Below are positions 1 through 8,009 of a stretch of 9,346 nt of DNA, piece by piece (within the stretch, counting starts at the first letter, position 1; every line of letters starts with the position of its first letter). Position numbers and translations under genes: made by a program. Source of the DNA: a virus. Lineage: Duplodnaviria > Heunggongvirae > Uroviricota > Caudoviricetes. Location of the stretch: IMG/VR virus record IMGVR_UViG_2778261360_000018. The stretch is one strand, 5' to 3'. The notes under the pieces are model-generated. The model saw nothing but the letters and a program-made list of their open reading frames with translations, had not been told where the DNA came from and searched no databases.

Positions 1-1251
1 GTGCTTACCGATACAAAATTAAAAAACCTCAAGCCGCAGGACAAACTGTACAAGGTCTCCGATCGTGACGGGCTGTATGTAGCTGTGCTTACGTCAGGCA
101 CGGTCTCGTTTCGCTATGACTACCGTATCAACGGTCGCCGCGAAACACTGGTAATCGGGCAGTATGGGCGTGACGGTATCAGCCTGGCAGAAGCGCGAGA
201 AGAACTGATTGCTGCAAAGAAGCTGCTTAAAGCAGGCCAGTCGCCGGCTGAGGCTAAACGTGACGGTATCAAAAAGATTCGTGGTGCCGAGACGTTTGCG
301 GTACATACCGACAGTTATATGAAACACGTCATCCTGGCTGACAGTACCCGCGCAATGAAGCAGGCGGTGATCGACCGTGACATACTTCCGGTTCTTGGCA
401 ACAAAATGATGGCTGAAATTACCACATCGATGGTTCGTGATTTGTGTGACCGGATTGTCGAACGCGGTGGTCGGGCAACAGCAGTACAGGCCAGGGAAAT
501 CATCAGCAGCGTATACCGTCACGCCAATGACCGTGGTCATGGTTTGTTTAATCCTGCGGCTGACATTAAACCTTCGTCTATCGCCATATTTAAACCACGA
601 GAGCGAACACTGACACCAGAAGAAATTGGCCTGTTCTTCCGCACGCTGGATGCCATTGGTGCTATGGGCACTATGAAAATGGCTTTAAAGCTGGTGCTTA
701 TCACTATGGTTCGTAAAGGCGAATTCACCAATGCAACGTGGGATGAAATAGATTTTAAAAAATGGACATGGACAATTCCTTCAGACCGCATGAAGGGAAG
801 CCGGGCGCACGTTATTTACCTGCCTAAACAGGCACAGGATATATTGGTTGGGTTGCAGATGTGCGCTGGTGGAAGTGAATATCTGGTTCCTGGTCGTTAC
901 AATTTCCGGAAGCCATTATCTAATGCCGCGCTGAACTCTCTGATCGACAGAACGGTGAAAATAATAAATGAAGATGGTGAGCATATTCAGGGCTTCACCG
1001 TACACGATATGCGCCGTACAGCCAGTACGTTGTTGCATGAGGCTGGTTATCCTTCAGACTGGATTGAAAAGGCTCTGGCACATGAGCAGAAAGGTGTGCG
1101 CGCCGTATATAACAAAGCGGAATACGCCAGACAGCGCGCCTACATGTTGCAGCAGTGGGCCGATATGATTGATTCCTGGATTAACGGGGAGCATACGGAT
1201 CTGATTCCGTTCTCCCCGTCGAAGTTTGAGAAGTGGATGGCGGGGGAATAA
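1..1251 (+). CDS. int: Tyrosine recombinase / phage integrase, P4-like family
   Basis: 416-aa ORF. N-terminus MLTDTKLKNLKP...GLYVAV...FRYDYR matches the arm-binding domain pattern of P4-like integrases; C-terminus HDMRRTASTLLHEAGY...AHEQKGVRAVYNKAEY fits the R...HxxR...Y catalytic signature. Start is GTG at base 1, so the true start and attachment site may lie just upstream, off-window. Confidence 0.9.
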   Translation: MLTDTKLKNLKPQDKLYKVSDRDGLYVAVLTSGTVSFRYDYRINGRRETLVIGQYGRDGISLAEAREELIAAKKLLKAGQSPAEAKRDGIKKIRGAETFAVHTDSYMKHVILADSTRAMKQAVIDRDILPVLGNKMMAEITTSMVRDLCDRIVERGGRATAVQAREIISSVYRHANDRGHGLFNPAADIKPSSIAIFKPRERTLTPEEIGLFFRTLDAIGAMGTMKMALKLVLITMVRKGEFTNATWDEIDFKKWTWTIPSDRMKGSRAHVIYLPKQAQDILVGLQMCAGGSEYLVPGRYNFRKPLSNAALNSLIDRTVKIINEDGEHIQGFTVHDMRRTASTLLHEAGYPSDWIEKALAHEQKGVRAVYNKAEYARQRAYMLQQWADMIDSWINGEHTDLIPFSPSKFEKWMAGE

Positions 1252-1254
1252 CGT

Positions 1255-1449
1255 TTAATAGTTCTGCTGATTTTCTTCCATCTTTGCTTCTGCTGCCAGT
1301 GATTCAATTTTGTTTTCGAATATTGCTGACAGCGTTGCAAATTCAGCATCAGTGACAGCGGGAATGGGAACAAACCGGATCCCGCTGTGTGCAAGCATGT
1401 TTGCAGTTTCAAGGCATTTCCTTAAATCTGCTGGTGATGCCCGGTTCAT
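1255..1449 (-). CDS. Hypothetical small protein (64 aa), last gene of the leftward operon
   Basis: ATG at 1449-1447 overlaps the methyltransferase stop (ATGA overlap, plus-strand tcat at 1446-1449), suggesting translational coupling. Translation MNRASPADLRKCLETANMLAHSG...EENQQNY. Stop lies 3 bp from the integrase stop (convergent). No family recognised. Confidence 0.5.
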   Translation of the reverse strand: MNRASPADLRKCLETANMLAHSGIRFVPIPAVTDAEFATLSAIFENKIESLAAEAKMEENQQNY

Positions 1450-2096
1450 GCTGCACGCTCCCGCCCCTGGTTGTCTGTTGGTGACAGCGGAGCATTGCTG
1501 AATGCATTTGTTAATCCGCCAATATCCAACGCGTATCCAGGGTGTAGTTGCACTGCCGGGTCTTCGCACTGATTACCCCAAACATCGAAGCCATGAGACG
1601 ACTGGCGGGCGAACAGTTCAATGCGAGAAACATCGCCTAACAATTGCACAAGTTTTTCACGAACGATATCTGGCTTTCTTGAATGCTCAAGCCGCGGTGC
1701 GGTAAATGACTGAACGATCCCTGCATTAATGCGCGTAGGTAGTTTTCCCTTTACCGCAAACAGGCAATCTTCACTATTGGCGCGAGTCATGTGTCCCATA
1801 CCCATAACCAGTTTATCTGGTTGTCGACTACCACATTTTATCCACGTGAATCCCTTCATGGTCATCAGACGGAATCCCCAGGCTTCAACAACTTTTAGTG
1901 CTTCTAGTGGTTGTGTTGGCACCCACCACATGGCCAACAGACAGTTTTCATCGGCCAAATCCCACACAGGAAGGCGGCAGATATCCAGCACACTCATAAC
2001 CGGATATTTAAAACCGGCACCGCGATTACCATCTGCGGCTTTGTCCCGGTATACCCAGGGGGGATCTGCATAGATTAGTGTGTATTTCTTAGTCAT
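1446..2096 (-). CDS. MT-A70 family N6-adenine DNA methyltransferase (orphan, no cognate nuclease seen)
   Basis: N-terminal MTKKYTLIYADPPW carries the DPPW catalytic motif typical of MT-A70-type adenine methyltransferases. ATG at 2096-2094 preferred over the upstream GTG at 2108 because of the GGGGTGG Shine-Dalgarno-like stretch just upstream. 216 aa. Confidence 0.8.
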   Translation of the reverse strand: MTKKYTLIYADPPWVYRDKAADGNRGAGFKYPVMSVLDICRLPVWDLADENCLLAMWWVPTQPLEALKVVEAWGFRLMTMKGFTWIKCGSRQPDKLVMGMGHMTRANSEDCLFAVKGKLPTRINAGIVQSFTAPRLEHSRKPDIVREKLVQLLGDVSRIELFARQSSHGFDVWGNQCEDPAVQLHPGYALDIGGLTNAFSNAPLSPTDNQGRERAA

Positions 2097-2340
2097 AAAC
2101 CACCCCACAACATCCTATGCCGCTATAGTCGCCACGGCGAAGGCCGTTACCTTTTGTGATACATTGGTCCCTGCGAACCGCGATCCTTGCACGCTCAACA
2201 TCACCAGAAGCAACATCCATACACTGAAGCCAAAGGTGAGCGGCAATGCGGAACTGCCCTTTTTTCTCTCTTTCAATCGCGCGTTTTTCGATCTCTATCG
2301 CCGCAGGAGTAACGGCGACAATCTTTGACGGACTGCGCAT
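2089..2340 (-). CDS. Hypothetical protein (about 83 aa; start uncertain)
   Basis: Minus-strand ORF 2089-2388, co-directional with the operon; stop overlaps the methyltransferase start by 8 nt. ATG at 2340 has an AAGG Shine-Dalgarno-like sequence 5 nt upstream; alternatives are ATG at 2355 and GTG at 2388. No family recognised. Confidence 0.4.
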   Translation of the reverse strand: MRSPSKIVAVTPAAIEIEKRAIEREKKGQFRIAAHLWLQCMDVASGDVERARIAVRRDQCITKGNGLRRGDYSGIGCCGVVYD

Positions 2341-2497
2341 TGAAACCTTGTTCATGTGATATTTTTCAAGTCGGCTTAACTTTCTCACTTAATCCAACCC
2401 TCTCTGAAAATTAATGCCAGCAGATAAAGCCATGCTGAAACAGAGGCCAGGAATAAGTACCATCCTGACCATTTGCTCCAGTGCCTTAGCAGCACAC

Positions 2498-2746
2498 TCA
2501 TGCAGCGTTGCTCACAGGACGATATACACGTTGCTGAACCGGAGGCTTTTTACCCTGGAACTCTGCCGGGCTTGCTGCCTGACGTTCATCAAGCCAACGC
2601 TCAACTTCGTCACGGTTCCATGCGCAGCGTTTGTCAGTGATATACCAGCGTTTAGGAAATTCACCTGCGCGCTCCATACGGTCGATAGTGCTCCATGACA
2701 GTGGCACCACCGCCAGGAGTTCCTTCTTACCTAATGCACCTTTCAT
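2498..2746 (-). CDS. AlpA-like HTH regulator / putative excisionase
   Basis: 82 aa; LAVVPLSWSTIDRMERAGEFPKRWYITDKRCAWNRDEVERWLDER resembles the AlpA/Xis family of small prophage HTH proteins. Shine-Dalgarno AGAGAGG 5 nt upstream of ATG 2746. Confidence 0.7.
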   Translation of the reverse strand: MKGALGKKELLAVVPLSWSTIDRMERAGEFPKRWYITDKRCAWNRDEVERWLDERQAASPAEFQGKKPPVQQRVYRPVSNAA

Positions 2747-2768
2747 AAATACCTCTCTTGGTTGCAGT

Positions 2769-2787
2769 GCGGCGCGCGTGGCGCCGC
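2769..2787. other. GC-rich perfect hairpin between the bet-like stop and the alpA-like start
   Basis: GCGGCGC-gcgtg-GCGCCGC: 7-bp all-GC stem with 5-nt loop. Not followed by a U-tract on the transcribed (minus) strand, so not a classic intrinsic terminator. Confidence 0.4.
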
Positions 2788-2795
2788 GGTGGTGG

Positions 2796-3677
2796 TTACA
2801 TAGATGTTTCGTTTAATTCTTCCCGGCGAACGCTGTAAACGTCGGTGGCTTTTGCCAGCAGTTCGTCATCATCTGAAAGTTTTTGTGCAATGTATTTGTA
2901 AGCCTTATCTAGTTCGGAGACAGTGCTGTAATTCATCGCTGCGCTGGTAAAGGCCATCAGCATTTCTTCTGGATCACGGCTATCCGCTTTACGCGTTTGC
3001 TCATCAGGCTTTTTCACTGTTTTAGCGTTGATCAGACTGTTCATTCCCGCAGCAGTGGTCGTTTGCGGAGTAATGTCTCGCTCAACGCGCGGTGCCGTTT
3101 CCTGTAATTCGTCTGGTGTGTAAACACCGAGAAGTACATCAGGAGCGTGCAGGCGAGCCCATCGTTTCGTGCAAAGATAGGCAAGCTGCTGGCGCGGATC
3201 CTGTTCCCACAATGGAGAGTTACGCACTCCGGCTTGCGCCATACTGATGGTAAGCTCACGTGGTTCTGCTTCTCCTTTAAGAACTGCTGACACAGTTACC
3301 GTCAGATTAGGTGATTTATCTGTTTTGCCGTTAACATTCGACCAGTCACCGCTCCAGCGATAATTCAGGCGTGTCGCCAGCAGGCTGGAAGAGGATACGA
3401 CCGCGTTTACCAACTGTGCTTCGTAGCCTAACGTTCCGTTTACCACATGCGTTTTCTGCGCCACGGCGAACGGGTTCATTCCCCACTGTGCCGCCTGCAT
3501 GGTCACCGCCAGGCAATCGGCAGGTTTGCCTTCAAGATGTTTCGGTACAGTTGCTTTGCTTTGTGACATCAACTCCGCGAAACGCACCAGTTGATTCATG
3601 CCCTCGGGGCTGAAGATTGCCGCAGCAGTGCCTACAGTTGCGCCTGGTTGTGATGTGATTGCGATATCATTGCTCAT
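2796..3677 (-). CDS. Single-strand annealing recombinase, RecT/Red-beta (Bet) family
   Basis: 293 aa. By recall of lambda Bet, shares short motifs: ERDITPQ (lambda ERDITPV), GMNPF (lambda GLNPW), WEQDPRQQL (lambda WQSHPKRML). Start overlaps the upstream exonuclease stop (ATGA at 3674-3677). Confidence 0.7.
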   Translation of the reverse strand: MSNDIAITSQPGATVGTAAAIFSPEGMNQLVRFAELMSQSKATVPKHLEGKPADCLAVTMQAAQWGMNPFAVAQKTHVVNGTLGYEAQLVNAVVSSSSLLATRLNYRWSGDWSNVNGKTDKSPNLTVTVSAVLKGEAEPRELTISMAQAGVRNSPLWEQDPRQQLAYLCTKRWARLHAPDVLLGVYTPDELQETAPRVERDITPQTTTAAGMNSLINAKTVKKPDEQTRKADSRDPEEMLMAFTSAAMNYSTVSELDKAYKYIAQKLSDDDELLAKATDVYSVRREELNETSM

Positions 3678-4495
3678 ACATACATATCCTGTTTACGTGC
3701 CCAGTCAGGGCGTTTAATAATTTCCACTCCGCCCCATTCATCGTTGATGCGGCATTCGTGATAGGTATTCAGATCCCGGCGGAACAGAGCGTGCCCGGCA
3801 TCGACATCCGGCGCATCCAGCTCGAACACGCGTACCGGATACCGACCACAATCAATGCTTTCGCTCACGGCAAGAAAGAAAAAACCATGCGGCTGACCAG
3901 TAACCCTCATTGCGCCTTCGCGGTACATTGCGTCCTGCACGTGGTAGCGGAATTCCTCGATGTGACGTGCAAAACGGTCCATATCTGCAACCTTTTTCAC
4001 GTCGACGATCACGTTGTGCTCGTTCAGCCATTTGTCTGGACGAATTCGGCACAACTCACCAGTCTCTTCATCGTTCCAGTACATTGACGCTTCGCAGTAA
4101 CCAGGTGCTTCCAACATCCAGCGTGCAGCCGGGTGAGCCATTGCGCTATCACGCATCAGCTCCAGTTTTCGCCACTGCTCGACATCAAGTACCGTAATAC
4201 CCATATCCGCCACATCACGAAGAAATGCTTCTTCGTCAGCTTTACCTTGTTTTGTCCGACGATCGAATTTCGGTGAAACGATGAAGCGCTTGTCGAATTC
4301 TCCAGGTTCCAGAAGCAGACAGTGCAATGCGGTTCCCATATCCAGTGCAGACTTTTTCTCTTCGTCTTCTGGTGCTGCCTGAACCCATTTAAGAAGCGCC
4401 GGATTCTTGGCAACCATGTCCAGTTGCGACTTACTCACGCCGTCACCGGCGTGGTAGTCTTCGTTGCTGATGTCGAAATAAATTCCCGGTTTCAT
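3674..4495 (-). CDS. PD-(D/E)XK-family exonuclease (RecE/exodeoxyribonuclease VIII-like, DUF3799-type), partner of the annealing protein
   Basis: 273 aa. N-terminal GIYFDISNEDYH, then D/E-rich blocks and IVDVKK resembling PD-(D/E)XK nuclease motifs. Coupled to both neighbours by ATGA overlaps (4492-4495 and 3674-3677). Shine-Dalgarno AGAGGGA upstream. Confidence 0.7.
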   Translation of the reverse strand: MKPGIYFDISNEDYHAGDGVSKSQLDMVAKNPALLKWVQAAPEDEEKKSALDMGTALHCLLLEPGEFDKRFIVSPKFDRRTKQGKADEEAFLRDVADMGITVLDVEQWRKLELMRDSAMAHPAARWMLEAPGYCEASMYWNDEETGELCRIRPDKWLNEHNVIVDVKKVADMDRFARHIEEFRYHVQDAMYREGAMRVTGQPHGFFFLAVSESIDCGRYPVRVFELDAPDVDAGHALFRRDLNTYHECRINDEWGGVEIIKRPDWARKQDMYV

Positions 4496-4791
4496 GCCGC
4501 GTCCCTCTGCCCATCAAGCTGATCAGCCAGATCCCAGCGGGCGATAATTGCCATTGCCTCTCGCCGGTAGGCATCCATCAGTTCTTCGAACTCAGGGCTG
4601 TCTTTAGCAGCCTCCAGTACTTCCTGACGAACGCCTTTGCCTGTTACAACGTCGAAAGTTGAGGCCAGTTGATGAAGCCGGATACTCTCAATCAGTTCAA
4701 CTTGTCGGTCATATAGCTGTTCTGACAGGCGGTAGTCCTTGTCGAATGCCAGCATGATTTTTTGAAGATTTTTCTGCTGATTAACGTTCAT
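4492..4791 (-). CDS. Hypothetical acidic protein (99 aa), early-left operon
   Basis: ATG at 4791 preceded by GGGAGGG; the track's longer 4806 start lacks this. MNVNQQKNLQKIM...PEFEELMDAYRREAM. No Arg-rich N-like motif. Faint resemblance to the lambda Gam C-terminus is speculative. Confidence 0.6.
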   Translation of the reverse strand: MNVNQQKNLQKIMLAFDKDYRLSEQLYDRQVELIESIRLHQLASTFDVVTGKGVRQEVLEAAKDSPEFEELMDAYRREAMAIIARWDLADQLDGQRDAA

Positions 4792-4793
4792 TA

Positions 4794-4946
4794 TCAGCCC
4801 TCCCATATCTCGTTATCGTTGGCCACATCGCGAGCTTCTTTGCTGACGAAAGCCCACTTAATGCCTTCCTGTAAGGTGCGGAACTTCCAGCTCATGAATC
4901 CGCATGCAGTAACGCAGTACCAACCGTTGATGATTTTCCACTGCAT
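4794..4946 (-). CDS. Hypothetical small protein (50 aa), first ORF after the pL-like promoter
   Basis: Below the 60-aa track cutoff; found by hand. ATG at 4946-4944 with GAGGT Shine-Dalgarno 8 nt upstream, stop TGA at 4796-4794. Translation MQWKIINGWYCVTACGFMSWKFRTLQEGIKWAFVSKEARDVANDNEIWEG has an aromatic/hydrophobic N-terminal half. Confidence 0.35.
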   Translation of the reverse strand: MQWKIINGWYCVTACGFMSWKFRTLQEGIKWAFVSKEARDVANDNEIWEG

Positions 4947-4952
4947 AACTTG

Positions 4953-5043
4953 TTACCTCGGTTTGTTACCGTTGAGGTAATAATTATGCGTATTTGGTTT
5001 GATGTCAATAGATATGAGTTAAAAAAATTACCCGTTAGGTAAT
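4953..5043 (-). promoter_or_regulatory. pL/OL-like leftward early promoter with two operator palindromes
   Basis: Minus-strand perfect -35 TTGACA (plus 5003-5008) with an AT-rich -10 candidate near 4980-4988. Palindromes gTTACC-gttga-GGTAAT (4965-4981, over -10/+1) and ATTACC-cgtta-GGTAAT (5027-5043, upstream of -35). Longer 7-bp arms TTACCTC/GAGGTAA at 4953-4959 and 4974-4980. Confidence 0.5.
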
Positions 5044-5099: not shown

Positions 5100-5684
5100 T
5101 TATTGTTTGTTTTTTTCGTTCTGGTTGATGACAAATTCAATGTAACTTTCGATCTTTGCCTTCTCTGTTTCAGGTAACAATGCGTAGCGCGAGCGATCAT
5201 AGTTGATGGTCGCAGGGTCGTGCGGGTGAATCAGTAATTCATAGCCGTGACGCCCGAATGCGGATGCAACATTCTCCAGGGTGGAAATGGAAACGCTGAC
5301 CTCATTGTTTAACAGGCGGCTGATTGTCACCTGGGCGACGCCGGATGCGCGGTGTAGTTTTCCCTGCGTTGAAAGGTCGCGGCTTTCGCTCATCCAGCGT
5401 TCCAGGTTGTGAGCCGCCAGCTGTCCAATGTCGCTTGGGCCGACAGGCTGAAAACCTTCCTGAGAAAGCGAGCGATCGATATCAAGCCAGTTACGGGGTT
5501 TATTGGCGGCAGCTTCAATTTTTCGCGCAACCTGGTCGCCGATAACCTTCTTGCCAAGAGCCCAGCGGTTTACCAGATTTGCCTGAGTTCCAAGTTTTTC
5601 TGCCATCCGCGTCTGAACACCATTGAATTCACGGTCGATCAAGTCGTTGAGATTTTGCCTGCGGACGTCCTGAATACTTTTCAT
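5100..5684 (-). CDS. Prophage immunity repressor, CI-like by position; two XRE-type HTH domains, no S24 peptidase domain
   Basis: 194 aa. HTH 1 about residues 20-65 (VQTRMAEKLGTQANLVNRWALGKKVIGDQVARKIEAA); HTH 2 about residues 105-150 (LSTQGKLHRASGVAQVTISRLLNNEVSVSISTLENVASAFG). No LexA/CI-type autocleavage module. Divergent from the cro-like gene across an operator-rich region; poor Shine-Dalgarno, as for lambda cI from PRM. Confidence 0.75.
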   Translation of the reverse strand: MKSIQDVRRQNLNDLIDREFNGVQTRMAEKLGTQANLVNRWALGKKVIGDQVARKIEAAANKPRNWLDIDRSLSQEGFQPVGPSDIGQLAAHNLERWMSESRDLSTQGKLHRASGVAQVTISRLLNNEVSVSISTLENVASAFGRHGYELLIHPHDPATINYDRSRYALLPETEKAKIESYIEFVINQNEKNKQ

Positions 5685-5738
5685 TTTCTGGAAAATCGCC
5701 TCATATATGAATCAGTAGATGATTCAATTTAAAGCAAT

Positions 5739-5813
5739 ATTACCCAACGGGTAAATGCACCCCATAGGTAACTATCCTTGATTTTTGTTACCTTATGGGT
5801 GAATATTTATTAT
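5739..5813. promoter_or_regulatory. OR-like divergent promoter/operator region between the repressor and cro-like gene
   Basis: Three related palindromes: ATTACC-caacg-GGTAAA (5739-5755), gcACC-ccata-GGTAAc (5757-5772), TTACC-ttatg-GGTgA (5788-5802). Candidate rightward promoter -35 TTGTTA (5785-5790), 17-nt spacer, -10 TATTAT (5808-5813). Confidence 0.5.
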
Positions 5814-5838
5814 CTGAAATAAATATCAGGCAATAGCT

Positions 5839-6069
5839 ATGAGCGATAACGGACATTTCGATTTCAAAAAGCACTGGCTTGCACTTACTCCGGATGAGCG
5901 TGAAGCCTTCGCACAGGAAGCCGGAACGACGAGTCACTATATCCAGACTCACTTAACAGGTAAGCGCAAAATGCCAGGTAAGGTATTGATGAATGGGCTT
6001 TTTAAAGCCTGTAAAACAAGACAATGGCTGCGCTCAAAAGCAGAACTGGCATACTTCTTCTACTCATGA
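5839..6069 (+). CDS. Cro/CII-like small HTH regulator, first gene of the rightward operon
   Basis: 76 aa. LTPDEREAFAQEAGTTSHYIQTHLTGKR is HTH-like. Sits where cro sits in lambda. Weak Shine-Dalgarno CAGG 8 nt upstream. Confidence 0.55.
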   Translation: MSDNGHFDFKKHWLALTPDEREAFAQEAGTTSHYIQTHLTGKRKMPGKVLMNGLFKACKTRQWLRSKAELAYFFYS

Positions 6070-6090
6070 TATCCAGCCACAACCCTCTGT

Positions 6091-6114
6091 AGACCGCCAT
6101 CCGGCGGTCTTTTC
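6091..6114 (+). terminator. tR1-like intrinsic terminator candidate after the cro-like gene
   Basis: Stem AGACCGCC / GGCGGTCT (6091-6098 / 6103-6110), loop atcc, followed by TTTC. The U-tract is short, so termination may be partial. Confidence 0.45.
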
Positions 6115-6219
6115 ATATCTATTCGCACCTTAAAGGTAATAAAAAACCAAATATGGTTGATCTTTTTTTTGTGTCAGCACAAAATAACCGTAATCCCAAT
6201 ACTAATAACAGGGCTTACC

Positions 6220-6420
6220 ATGGAAATCATTACACGTATTGATGCCGCAAAGCGCGGACTTAAACGCTACTACACCGGAAAAACATGTAAGCACGGACAT
6301 GACAGTGAACGCTGGGTTTACAACGGACACTGTGTTGAGTGCACCATGGAATCAAACCGTCGTATCAGGGCAGAGATTAAGCAGATCATGATTAATTCCT
6401 CCCCACAACATTCAAGCTGA
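6220..6420 (+). CDS. Small Cys/His-rich putative zinc-binding protein (66 aa), in the cII position
   Basis: MEIITRIDAAKRGLKRYYTGKTCKHGHDSERWVYNGHCVEC... with C-x-H-x-H-x9-H-C-x2-C spacing. ATG at 6220 chosen over the track's 6157 start, whose N-terminal extension is hydrophobic junk. Family not recognised. Confidence 0.5.
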   Translation: MEIITRIDAAKRGLKRYYTGKTCKHGHDSERWVYNGHCVECTMESNRRIRAEIKQIMINSSPQHSS

Positions 6421-6435
6421 TAGCGGAGATTAATC

Positions 6436-7227
6436 ATGAGCAGACATGCAACAGATTGGGCCTGGGAGACAGATCCAGGTAGCTCGTCATTAAAGCTCAT
6501 ACTGCTCTCGATGGCTGACAGAGCCGATGAATATAACCTTTGCTACCCCAGCATAGAACGCCTCGTTAAAGACACTTGCCTGAATAAAAAAACCGTGCAG
6601 GCCGGGCTTATATCGCTCATGAAAATGGGGCTTATTTCAGATACCGGAGAGAGAAAGGGAGCGACGAAAAGAGTGCGGGTTTTCTCTCTTAATATAACCA
6701 AAAACGGGAACATTAAAGGCAACCGGGAAGGGGGTAATGAACCCGAAAACGGTAATGTTACCGAAAACGGGAATATACCCAAAAACGGGGTGTTGAATGA
6801 TCCCAAAAACGGGATCCAGAACCAGTCATATAACCAGTCATTTAACCAAGAGAGGGAGAGCAGGACAAAAAGCGGGGATTCTGTGCCTCATGACCCCGGC
6901 GCAAACAACGCCGTGATGAATAACTTTGTTTCTCCTGGTGGGCCAGGGCAATTAGGCAAATTTGTCATGCATGAACAATGGCAGCCATCAGATGACTTTC
7001 TTCGGAAAAGCTCATTGCAGGGGATCTACCTGGACAGTCTGCCAACGGCACAGGAACTTGCAGAGTTCAGAATTTACTGGATGGCTGAGGGTAAGGCATA
7101 CCATCAGGCACAGTGGGAGCAGAAGCTGGCAAGGCGGCTGCAGATTAGCAGACAGAAGCAATCAACATTACCTGATAACAACGTTCCGCACTGGAACAGC
7201 CCTGAAGCGTGGGAGGATTTCTTGTGA
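6436..7227 (+). CDS. Replication initiator, lambda O-like (N-terminal winged-helix, low-complexity linker, C-terminal DnaT-like region)
   Basis: 263 aa. N-terminal LKLILLSMADRADEYNLCYPSIERLVKDTCLNKKTVQAGLISLMKMGLI is HTH-like; central N/G-rich linker is encoded by DNA iterons; C-terminal QWQPSDDFL...EFRIYWMAEGKAYHQAQWEQKLARRLQ. Located directly upstream of the P homolog. Confidence 0.75.
   Translation: MSRHATDWAWETDPGSSSLKLILLSMADRADEYNLCYPSIERLVKDTCLNKKTVQAGLISLMKMGLISDTGERKGATKRVRVFSLNITKNGNIKGNREGGNEPENGNVTENGNIPKNGVLNDPKNGIQNQSYNQSFNQERESRTKSGDSVPHDPGANNAVMNNFVSPGGPGQLGKFVMHEQWQPSDDFLRKSSLQGIYLDSLPTAQELAEFRIYWMAEGKAYHQAQWEQKLARRLQISRQKQSTLPDNNVPHWNSPEAWEDFL
6694..6847. repeat. Iteron array (putative replication origin) inside the O-like gene
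   Basis: Five direct repeats with core AAAACGG(G) starting at 6701, 6746, 6764, 6782 and 6806, with 18-bp periodicity for the central three; then a tandem CCAGTCAT(A/T)TAACC x2 at 6822-6847. Confidence 0.6.
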
Positions 7228-8009
7228 ACAACGTTTTTACCGCGATACAAAACCGTGACGGAGAAGCCCTTTCTCGCATGTCAGGTTATGAGCATCAGTA
7301 CGTCAACAATGACAATGTGGTGAACATGTCAGCAGAGAGGCTTGTTGATGCCCTTTTCAAACAGCTGAAACAACTGTTTCCGGCGGCAGTGGTAACCAAC
7401 CTGAAGACGCCAGAGCAGGAAGTAGCTGCAAAACAGCAGTGGATTGCTGCGTTTGCCGAAGGGGGGATCCGAACCCGTGAACAGGTTTCTGCTGGTATGC
7501 GCCACGCCCGCGCCAGTGAATCTCCGTTCTGGCCGTCGCCTGGGCAATTCATCAAGTGGTGTAAAGACAGCAAGATGGTTCTTGGCGTCACCATTGACGA
7601 TGTGATGGCGGAGTTTCACCGGTACAGCAAGGAAAAAAGTTTATATCCTGGTGGTCCCGAAAGATTCCCGTGGCGGCATCCTGTTATGTACTGGGTCGTA
7701 TGTGATACCCGCCGTGCAATGTATCAGCGCCAGCTTAGCGAGATTGAGGTTGAGAAACACGCGTGCAGGCTGCTCGATGATTGGGCGAAAAAGGTGGCTT
7801 CCGGACAGCAGATACCCGATCCGGTGATCAGCATACAGGCAAAGTCAGAGCCCATGAGTACACCTCCGGACACAGGGAGAGACGTTTACCATCCACTAGG
7901 GCGAAGTTTCGGGTGCATGCCTAACGCCGCCACCCTTGGGGGAATAACACCGGCGCAGTGGCTGATGGAGGAATACAGGCGGGGAAAGGAGGCAGGATTT
8001 ATCAAGTAA
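7224..8009 (+). CDS. Replication protein P-like (replicative helicase loader)
   Basis: GGIRTREQVSAGMRHARASESPFWPSPGQFIKWCKD closely matches my recall of lambda P (NGITTMEQVNAGMRVARRQNRPFLPSPGQFVAWCRE); SLYPGG...FPW...YWVV also matches. Start assigned to GTG 7224 (GTGA overlap with the O-like stop, Shine-Dalgarno GGGAGGA at 7211-7217) rather than the track's GTG at 7209. Confidence 0.9.
   Translation: MNNVFTAIQNRDGEALSRMSGYEHQYVNNDNVVNMSAERLVDALFKQLKQLFPAAVVTNLKTPEQEVAAKQQWIAAFAEGGIRTREQVSAGMRHARASESPFWPSPGQFIKWCKDSKMVLGVTIDDVMAEFHRYSKEKSLYPGGPERFPWRHPVMYWVVCDTRRAMYQRQLSEIEVEKHACRLLDDWAKKVASGQQIPDPVISIQAKSEPMSTPPDTGRDVYHPLGRSFGCMPNAATLGGITPAQWLMEEYRRGKEAGFIK

Follow-up and report, generated by a model that had tools for sequence, protein, structure and literature searches.

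What does an orphan adenine methyltransferase at the far end of a phage operon act on, and is the small protein whose gene overlaps its own a partner of the enzyme? The question is raised by a 9,346-nucleotide (nt) stretch of Caudoviricetes DNA (IMG/VR virus record IMGVR_UViG_2778261360_000018; this whole stretch is called the window below), in which a methylase gene on the minus strand is flanked by two small open reading frames (ORFs). A preliminary description, made from the sequence alone, had proposed that the ORF coupled to the end of the methylase gene, which encodes 64 amino acids (aa), could specify a specificity or regulatory partner. As far as sequence comparison can tell, the module instead brings together three accessory genes that are independent of one another, for a PerC-family regulator, a 216-aa MT-A70 N6-adenine methyltransferase (activity predicted) and a homologue of lambda Orf63 (DUF1382). 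Our preferred reading, to which we give roughly even odds (about 0.5), is that the methylase would be a stand-alone or homodimeric GATC DNA methyltransferase, expressed from an early-left (pL) operon and lacking PNB-2, the protein that partners a characterised relative, with the Orf63 homologue acting separately. The three genes are:

1446..2096, minus strand: predicted 216-aa MT-A70-family S-adenosylmethionine (SAM)-dependent N6-adenine methyltransferase of the M.EcoGV / M.EcoPA8orf6770P clade (Pfam PF05063, phrog_359, PADLOC MTase_II)
1255..1449, minus strand: 64-aa lambda Orf63 (DUF1382) homologue (Pfam PF07131, PDB 8DSB), in an exchangeable slot
2089..2388, minus strand: PerC-family small regulator (Pfam PF06069, phrog_868), with alternative ATG starts at 2355 and 2340

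About a tenth of complete E. coli genomes contain the methylase module, and a Stx-phage relative of the enzyme raises spontaneous prophage induction and virulence.

A predicted MT-A70 methylase without PNB-2

The methylase ORF runs from an ATG at 2096 to a TGA at 1446 and starts with the N-terminus MTKKYTLIYADPPW. Its description as a DPPW-motif MT-A70 methyltransferase was borne out: residues 5-176 match the full Pfam MT-A70 profile (PF05063, positions 1-172 of 172; 79.7 bits against a cutoff of 23.9, E 3.3e-22), and the protein also matches the phrog_359 DNA methyltransferase family (E 3e-120) and the PADLOC MTase_II model (E 2.8e-77). An NCBIfam scan of the methylase and the 64-aa ORF gave no match. 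The DPPW motif occupies residues 11-14, near the N-terminus (a permuted order), is invariant across an alignment of seven relatives and aligns with the DPPW of 7F4R/7F4L. These Tetrahymena MT-A70 proteins are the nearest solved structures (phmmer E ~4e-13), followed by METTL3 (~6e-06). Eukaryotic MT-A70 heteromers (METTL3-METTL14; the ciliate MTA1-MTA9-p1-p2) share the catalytic fold and DPPW with the window methylase and are a precedent for a minimal MT-A70 core that requires accessory nucleic-acid-binding subunits. The similarity is remote, however, and the window has neither a paralogous inactive subunit nor fused RNA- or DNA-binding domains.

Among phage relatives, the window methylase is 81% identical to that of Enterobacter phage Tyrion, 77-78% to those of epsilon15 and a Klebsiella phage, 75% to those of phages phiPA8 (KP682374) and P13374, and 45% to that of HK639. 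Divergence from the phiPA8 and P13374 enzymes is limited to the C-terminal tail: residues 1-187 are about 82-83% identical to the phiPA8 enzyme (tblastn), and from about residue 178 to residue 216 the window tail is unrelated to the tail of the enzymes from E. coli that produces Shiga toxin (STEC) (PGYALDIGGLTNAFSNAPLSPTDNQGRERAA versus PGIVKFLEKTNERKNDVDKGITS). The window-type tail is common only to Tyrion among the aligned relatives.

The phiPA8 enzyme, M.EcoPA8orf6770P, comes from a Stx2a phage and was characterised by Gong, Chakraborty and Koudelka (NAR 2024; PMC10810198). Disruption of its gene by IS629 leads to less spontaneous induction and less virulence, and this defect is complemented by the wild-type enzyme and not by a DPPW-to-APPA mutant (PMC10810198). 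The gene next upstream encodes PNB-2, a winged-helix protein, with which the enzyme associates in a 1:1 ratio; the complex favours RNA over DNA more than 13-fold and prefers 16S ribosomal RNA (rRNA) in 30S subunits (PMC10810198). PNB-2 binding may require the final 27 residues of the STEC enzyme, and shorter, non-STEC forms occur without PNB-2 (PMC10810198). M.EcoGV, the homologue from the O104:H4 Stx2a phage P13374, is an orphan that hardly differs from the phiPA8 enzyme and has 75% identity to that of the window; its phage type and gene neighbours differ from those of the window. When overproduced without PNB-2, M.EcoGV methylated GATC in vivo (PMC10810198; PMC6602927).

The phiPA8 and window loci thus share an MT-A70 catalytic subunit with the same DPPW site and a DUF1382 gene directly downstream of it. 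They differ in that phiPA8 has PNB-2 upstream, a terminator with a stationary-phase-induced promoter, and a distinct 27-aa C-tail, whereas the window has a PerC-family gene upstream, a Tyrion-type tail and no detected promoter of its own. Searches for PNB-2 (tblastn) covered the window, about 160 phiV10-like loci together with their 3-kb flanks, and the complete genome of Escherichia phage phiV10; none of these gave a match, the best E value in phiV10 being 5.8. PNB-2 was readily found by tblastn beside the Stx2a phage methylases, near the 45%-identical HK639 methylase and in several Klebsiella phages. In Tyrion the gene directly upstream of the methylase encodes a small winged-helix protein, which shows only a marginal helix-turn-helix match to PNB-2 (E 0.048). 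On these comparisons the window enzyme is a PNB-2-less member of the characterised clade.

The preliminary description was also right that no restriction endonuclease adjoins the methylase. A Pfam search of 16 window ORFs gave no endonuclease match; the PADLOC defence library, run on nine smaller window ORFs, gave no endonuclease and matched only the methylase (MTase_II); and the annotation of the complete phiV10 genome lists no restriction endonuclease. Because no endonuclease appears among the scanned window ORFs or in the phiV10 annotation, we regard the methylase as an orphan, and a restriction-modification reading of the locus was rejected on the same grounds.

A lambda Orf63 homologue downstream of the methylase

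The small ORFs beside the methylase had been described as unrecognised. Both belong to known families, the downstream one to DUF1382. It runs from an ATG at 1449 to a TAA at 1255, with its ATG overlapping the methylase TGA as ATGA, and a GGGAG Shine-Dalgarno-like sequence lies 8 nt upstream of its start. The 64-aa protein matches Pfam DUF1382 (PF07131) over the entire profile (positions 1-60 of 60; 101.1 bits against a cutoff of 27, E 3.5e-29) and matches PDB 8DSB, the nuclear magnetic resonance structure of lambda Orf63 (E 2.9e-12), to which it is about 48% identical over 61 residues. Its RFVPIP strand, E36 and K47 are invariant in an alignment with Orf63 relatives; the residues singled out for Orf63 are an F-V-P strand, E36 and K47 (PMC10869804). 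Among phiV10-like loci the ratio of nonsynonymous to synonymous polymorphism (pN/pS) of the gene is 0.16 over 28 alleles, indicating purifying selection. We rejected a chance ORF, and likewise a longer 104-aa form starting at GTG 1569, since the DUF1382 profile begins at residue 1 of the 64-aa form.

Lambda Orf63 is a solved, obligately dimeric helix-strand-helix protein and is non-essential (PMC10869804; PMC10695390). When orf63 is put back into a deletion phage, fewer hosts survive and fewer lysogens are obtained (PMC10869804). The lambda and window proteins are alike in size and both are encoded early-left, the gene being non-essential in lambda. Their settings differ: lambda orf63 sits between orf60a (DUF1317) and orf61 in the exo-xis region, whereas the window gene is the last of its operon, beyond xis/alpA and between the methylase gene and int, with no adjacent DUF1317 gene. 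Our analysis suggests that the homologue most likely acts independently as a dimeric developmental (pro-lytic) modulator and not as a methylase subunit.

Cassette exchange in the slot behind the methylase

If the 64-aa ORF were a partner of the methylase, the two might be expected to be co-conserved, as the preliminary description had suggested checking. We took a census of 80 IMG/VR loci (L008-L087) whose methylase is at least 98% identical to the window's, examining the junction, which lies at about 3645-3651 of each. A DUF1382 gene follows the methylase in only 53 of the 80; at the identical ATGA junction, 20 loci have a gene for a 219-aa NinI-like metallophosphatase and seven a gene for an unrelated 82-aa protein (phrog_9805). 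Behind the methylase there is therefore a point of cassette exchange whose ATGA junction is invariant. The DUF1382 gene of one locus, L053, is without its normal start.

Further afield, Tyrion, epsilon15, the Klebsiella phage and HK639 have unrelated small genes after the methylase, and DUF1382 was found in none of the 32 immediate neighbours of methylase homologues from 16 other Enterobacterales species. Tyrion has the same C-tail as the window methylase, yet lacks DUF1382. The type of methylase tail does not track the presence of DUF1382 in the present sample. Conversely, orf63 of lambda, 933W and VT2-Sakai adjoins DUF1317/ZapA-type neighbours and not a methylase, and these three phages are absent among the matches listed for the window methylase in a 60-record sample. 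In our reading, the methylase gene and orf63 are each a common accessory gene in temperate phages of E. coli and share a promoter-distal neighbourhood; we consider a functional link between them improbable.

Overlapping junctions throughout an early-left operon

The ATGA overlap of the 64-aa ORF (1255-1449) with the methylase gene and the 8-nt overlap at the methylase start were both confirmed from the minus-strand sequence. They recur in kind along the rest of the operon, which with the convergent integrase gene comprises, besides the three genes above:

1..1251, plus strand: P4-type tyrosine integrase (Pfam Arm-DNA-bind_3, Phage_integrase), convergent with the operon
2385..2501, minus strand: 38-aa membrane protein gene (phrog_17484 membrane protein, E 4.7e-27)
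2498..2746, minus strand: AlpA-family excisionase/regulator (Pfam PF05930, 24.2 bits against a cutoff of 21; phrog_66)
2796-3677, minus strand: RecT (Pfam RecT), upstream in the same operon
3674-4495, minus strand: PD-(D/E)XK exonuclease (Pfam DUF3799), upstream in the same operon
4492-4806, minus strand: 104-aa ORF (from its ORF coordinates), upstream in the same operon
4966..5043, minus strand: probable early-left promoter (TTGACA-17-AATTAT at 5008-4980) with operator-like palindromes

Read from the sequence, the successive junctions of alpA, the 38-aa gene, perC, the methylase gene and orf63 are all overlaps of 4-8 nt, and 4-nt overlaps also join RecT, the exonuclease and the 104-aa ORF. 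ATGA junctions lie at 1446-1449, 2498-2501, 3674-3677 and 4492-4495, a GTGA at 2385-2388 and ATGACTAA at 2089-2096. Translational coupling is thus the rule for the whole operon (1255-4806) and is not peculiar to the methylase and orf63. Since nearly all junctions overlap, the coupling of these two genes carries no specific meaning; in tightly packed phage operons, gene overlap by itself is no evidence for protein partnership.

The placement of the module at the end of a leftward operon holds up as well. TTACC-N5/6-GGTAA palindromes at 4966-4981 and 5028-5043 flank the TTGACA-17-AATTAT promoter, which sits just past the terminator of the repressor gene (5079-5060), and no terminator was predicted from this pL-like promoter to 1255. 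With a promoter and operators present and no terminator predicted downstream, the end of a leftward operon is a fair description. Further palindromes of this type occur in the repressor-cro intergenic region (5740-5754, 5755-5804). The palindromes repeated around the pL-like promoter and in that region are probably operator sites, and the epsilon15 annotation places repressor sites at the position equivalent to the window's pL-like promoter. A scan for internal promoters and terminators upstream of 2388 found none, the overall counts of the promoter and terminator scan being not above those of shuffles. On this basis we rejected the idea that the methylase is a lysogen-expressed moron like that of phiPA8. 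We read the region as the end farthest from the promoter in the early-left operon, under repressor control, of a phiV10-type (Uetakevirus) prophage.

At the far end, the stop codons of the integrase gene (plus strand) and the orf63-like gene (minus strand) are 3 nt apart (1249-1257) without a terminator between them, and leftward transcripts should run antisense into int. At the equivalent place, epsilon15 has annotated RNase III sites.

Proposed function and target of the methylase

In the reading that we prefer, the methylase would be produced only when pL fires, on infection or induction. It would work without PNB-2, alone or as a homodimer, transferring a methyl group from SAM to adenine N6, and its most probable target would be GATC in replicating phage and host DNA, as for M.EcoGV without PNB-2. 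Such methylation could serve as a Dam-like top-up, able to protect against GATC-directed restriction or to alter timing or regulation, while the Orf63 homologue, a separate dimeric pro-lytic modulator, would simply occupy the last slot. We favour DNA (GATC) over rRNA because in the relative it is an additional subunit, not present here, that brings about the preference for RNA. That the methylase protects DNA from restriction, as the preliminary description had suggested, is less certain because the phiPA8 holoenzyme prefers 16S rRNA. The observed/expected ratio of GATC in phiV10 is 0.79, which is uninformative as to the target; among its 4-mer palindromes only CTAG, GGCC and AGCT are depleted.

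Several observations weigh against this reading. On the enzyme side, purified M.EcoPA8orf6770P alone showed near-background, non-specific activity on dam- DNA in vitro (PMC10810198); the phiPA8 authors regard the GATC result as a possible overexpression artefact (PMC10810198); and a literature search found no measured specificity for the phiV10 or epsilon15 enzyme. On the side of the small protein, lambda Orf63 binds an amphipathic helix in a cleft and is without a known partner (PMC10869804). The orf63 allele of the window has the methylase upstream in all 80 loci that carry the allele. In addition, the order methylase then orf63 recurs in an unrelated lineage, the Stx2a phages, with a 47-48% identical Orf63 and another junction: in phiPA8 (2056-2268 of locus L168) and P13374 (2727-2939 of locus L004) the DUF1382 gene lies directly downstream and overlaps the methylase 3' end by 41 nt. 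The study of the phiPA8 methylase does not discuss this downstream gene (PMC10810198).

These points bear on alternatives for both the target and the partner. Because the phiPA8 enzyme is nearly inactive in vitro when isolated, a different target or partner stays in play, and the most serious alternative, which we nonetheless consider unlikely, is that RNA is the main substrate of the window enzyme, which would methylate 16S rRNA in 30S subunits and tune induction, through some other targeting subunit or its divergent C-tail. Its catalytic core, about 83% identical to that of M.EcoPA8orf6770P, would fit such a role, given the 16S/30S preference of the phiPA8 holoenzyme and the failure of the DPPW-to-APPA mutant to complement; so would the heteromeric nature of the closest solved structures and the winged-helix gene directly upstream of the methylase in Tyrion, which shares the window's C-tail. 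Yet the RNA preference came from PNB-2, which has no match in the window or in the whole phiV10 genome, and the C-terminal 27 aa proposed for PNB-2 binding are replaced in the window enzyme. No winged-helix gene adjoins the window methylase, the upstream gene being of the PerC family, and the promoter and terminator that allow expression of the phiPA8 pair in the lysogen were not found in the window scan. Far less probable is that the methylase is a remnant without function, or that it serves as the modification half of a restriction-modification system whose other half is lost or lies at a distance. PADLOC's Type II methyltransferase models do match it, and lysogen methylomes often leave prophage methylases without a motif, but such silence in the lysogen is expected for a pL-driven gene. 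The DPPW motif is intact and the domain full-length; pN/pS is 0.17 over 61 alleles among phiV10-like loci (purifying selection), the gene is intact in all 80 loci of the at least 98%-identical set, and an endonuclease was found neither among the scanned window ORFs nor in phiV10.

As for the small protein, we think it improbable that it is a specificity or regulatory subunit whose ATGA coupling ensures stoichiometric co-production with the methylase. The recurrence of the methylase-DUF1382 order with overlapping frames in two unrelated lineages at different junctions, the constant position of the window's allele behind the methylase, the partner-less cleft of Orf63, the usual need of MT-A70 enzymes for partners and the promotion of lytic development by both Orf63 and the phiPA8 methylase all speak for such a subunit. 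Against it, 27 of the 80 loci carry the phosphatase or the unrelated 82-aa gene behind a methylase that is at least 98% identical; DUF1382 is not beside the close methylase relatives of Tyrion, epsilon15 and the Klebsiella phage or those of the 16 other species (0 of 32 neighbours); orf63 of lambda, 933W and VT2-Sakai is not beside a methylase, and those phages are absent among the matches listed; and overlap coupling is universal, hence generic, across the operon. Moreover, PNB-2 alone sufficed to reconstitute the phiPA8 holoenzyme, and a methylase-only plasmid complemented the phenotype. The expectation of a small partner thus holds for this enzyme clade, but the partner shown in phiPA8 is PNB-2, encoded upstream, and not the 64-aa protein. 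A broader version, slightly less improbable, is that Orf63-family dimers are a second accessory factor of the M.EcoGV/M.EcoPA8 clade, maybe binding the variable C-terminal region or the nucleic-acid substrate. If true, this would explain why the methylase-orf63 order recurs in phiV10-type podoviruses and Stx2a Oslovirus phages, would connect Orf63's pro-lytic effect with the promotion of induction by the methylase, and would give the PNB-2-less phiV10-type enzyme, carried by about 10% of E. coli genomes, a target other than GATC and 16S rRNA.

For the stand-alone GATC methylase that we favour, as for its RNA-directed alternative, the target matters beyond this locus: knowing whether a PNB-2-less enzyme acts on DNA (GATC) or on RNA would indicate to what extent the rRNA methyltransferase mechanism of prophages reaches beyond STEC, and would also reveal if loss of the partner switches the substrate.

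A PerC-family gene upstream of the methylase

The ORF upstream of the methylase matches Pfam PerC (PF06069; 30.5 bits against a cutoff of 22.6) and the phrog_868 transcriptional activator family (E 1.3e-51); a match of the PerC-like protein to the ANR family was weak and below the cutoff. Of its preliminary coordinates (2089-2340), the stop stands: TAA at 2089-2091 lies within ATGACTAA, giving the 8-nt overlap with the methylase start. The ATG start at 2340 does not stand, the most likely start being GTG 2388, which would give a 99-aa product. We favour GTG 2388 because it makes a GTGA overlap with the 38-aa gene and because the phrog_868 profile is 99 residues long, the shorter form aligning to profile positions 17-99 of 99. 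The PerC-like protein and PNB-2 gave no alignment with each other, and the possibility that the former is a diverged PNB-2 was rejected for this reason.

PerC/Pch homologues in prophages of enteropathogenic and enterohaemorrhagic E. coli activate ler, the regulator of the locus of enterocyte effacement, and phiV10 infects O157:H7. The PerC gene lies upstream of the methylase in 76 of the 80 loci. Three of these 80 phiV10-like loci (L061, L080 and L081) have in its place, directly upstream of the methylase, a gene for a 367-aa DndB-family protein (PF14072, DGQHR motif), a relative in Salmonella phage SPC32N is annotated similarly to this variant, and methylase with DndB may be a distinct pairing.

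Origin and phage setting of the window

Positions 1200-2800 of the window share 98% DNA identity with phiV10 (Uetakevirus, epsilon15-like) and several other coliphages, and 561 of 5426 complete E. coli genomes carry homologous DNA. In phiV10 the three genes are PhiV10p32, p33 and p34 (NC_007804.2), already named DUF1382 family protein, DNA methyltransferase and PerC-type transcriptional activator. The gene annotations, the small-protein families, the one solved structure and the enzyme clade were all previously public. Gene order, overlaps and the convergent P4-type integrase are the same in phiV10 and the window, as they are in O157 typing phages 9 and 10 and in TL-2011b. The window and phiV10 differ by few substitutions, and the PerC gene is annotated as 88 aa in phiV10. 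RecE-RecT is a single fused 1761-nt gene in phiV10 (5597-7357 of locus L001), whereas the window has separate overlapping RecT and exonuclease ORFs, an arrangement found likewise in epsilon15 and Tyrion.

An Rfam scan of the window found no RNA family. The remaining window genes match this phage type: an AlpA-like excisionase, RecT, the PD-(D/E)XK exonuclease, a CI-like repressor, DnaT-like and lambda-P-like replication proteins, and a DUF1064 protein. Outside the region covered by the window, phiV10 encodes an ASCH-domain protein (38492-38773 of record L249); the prediction for the ASCH domain is that it binds nucleic acids carrying modifications (PMC4738411).

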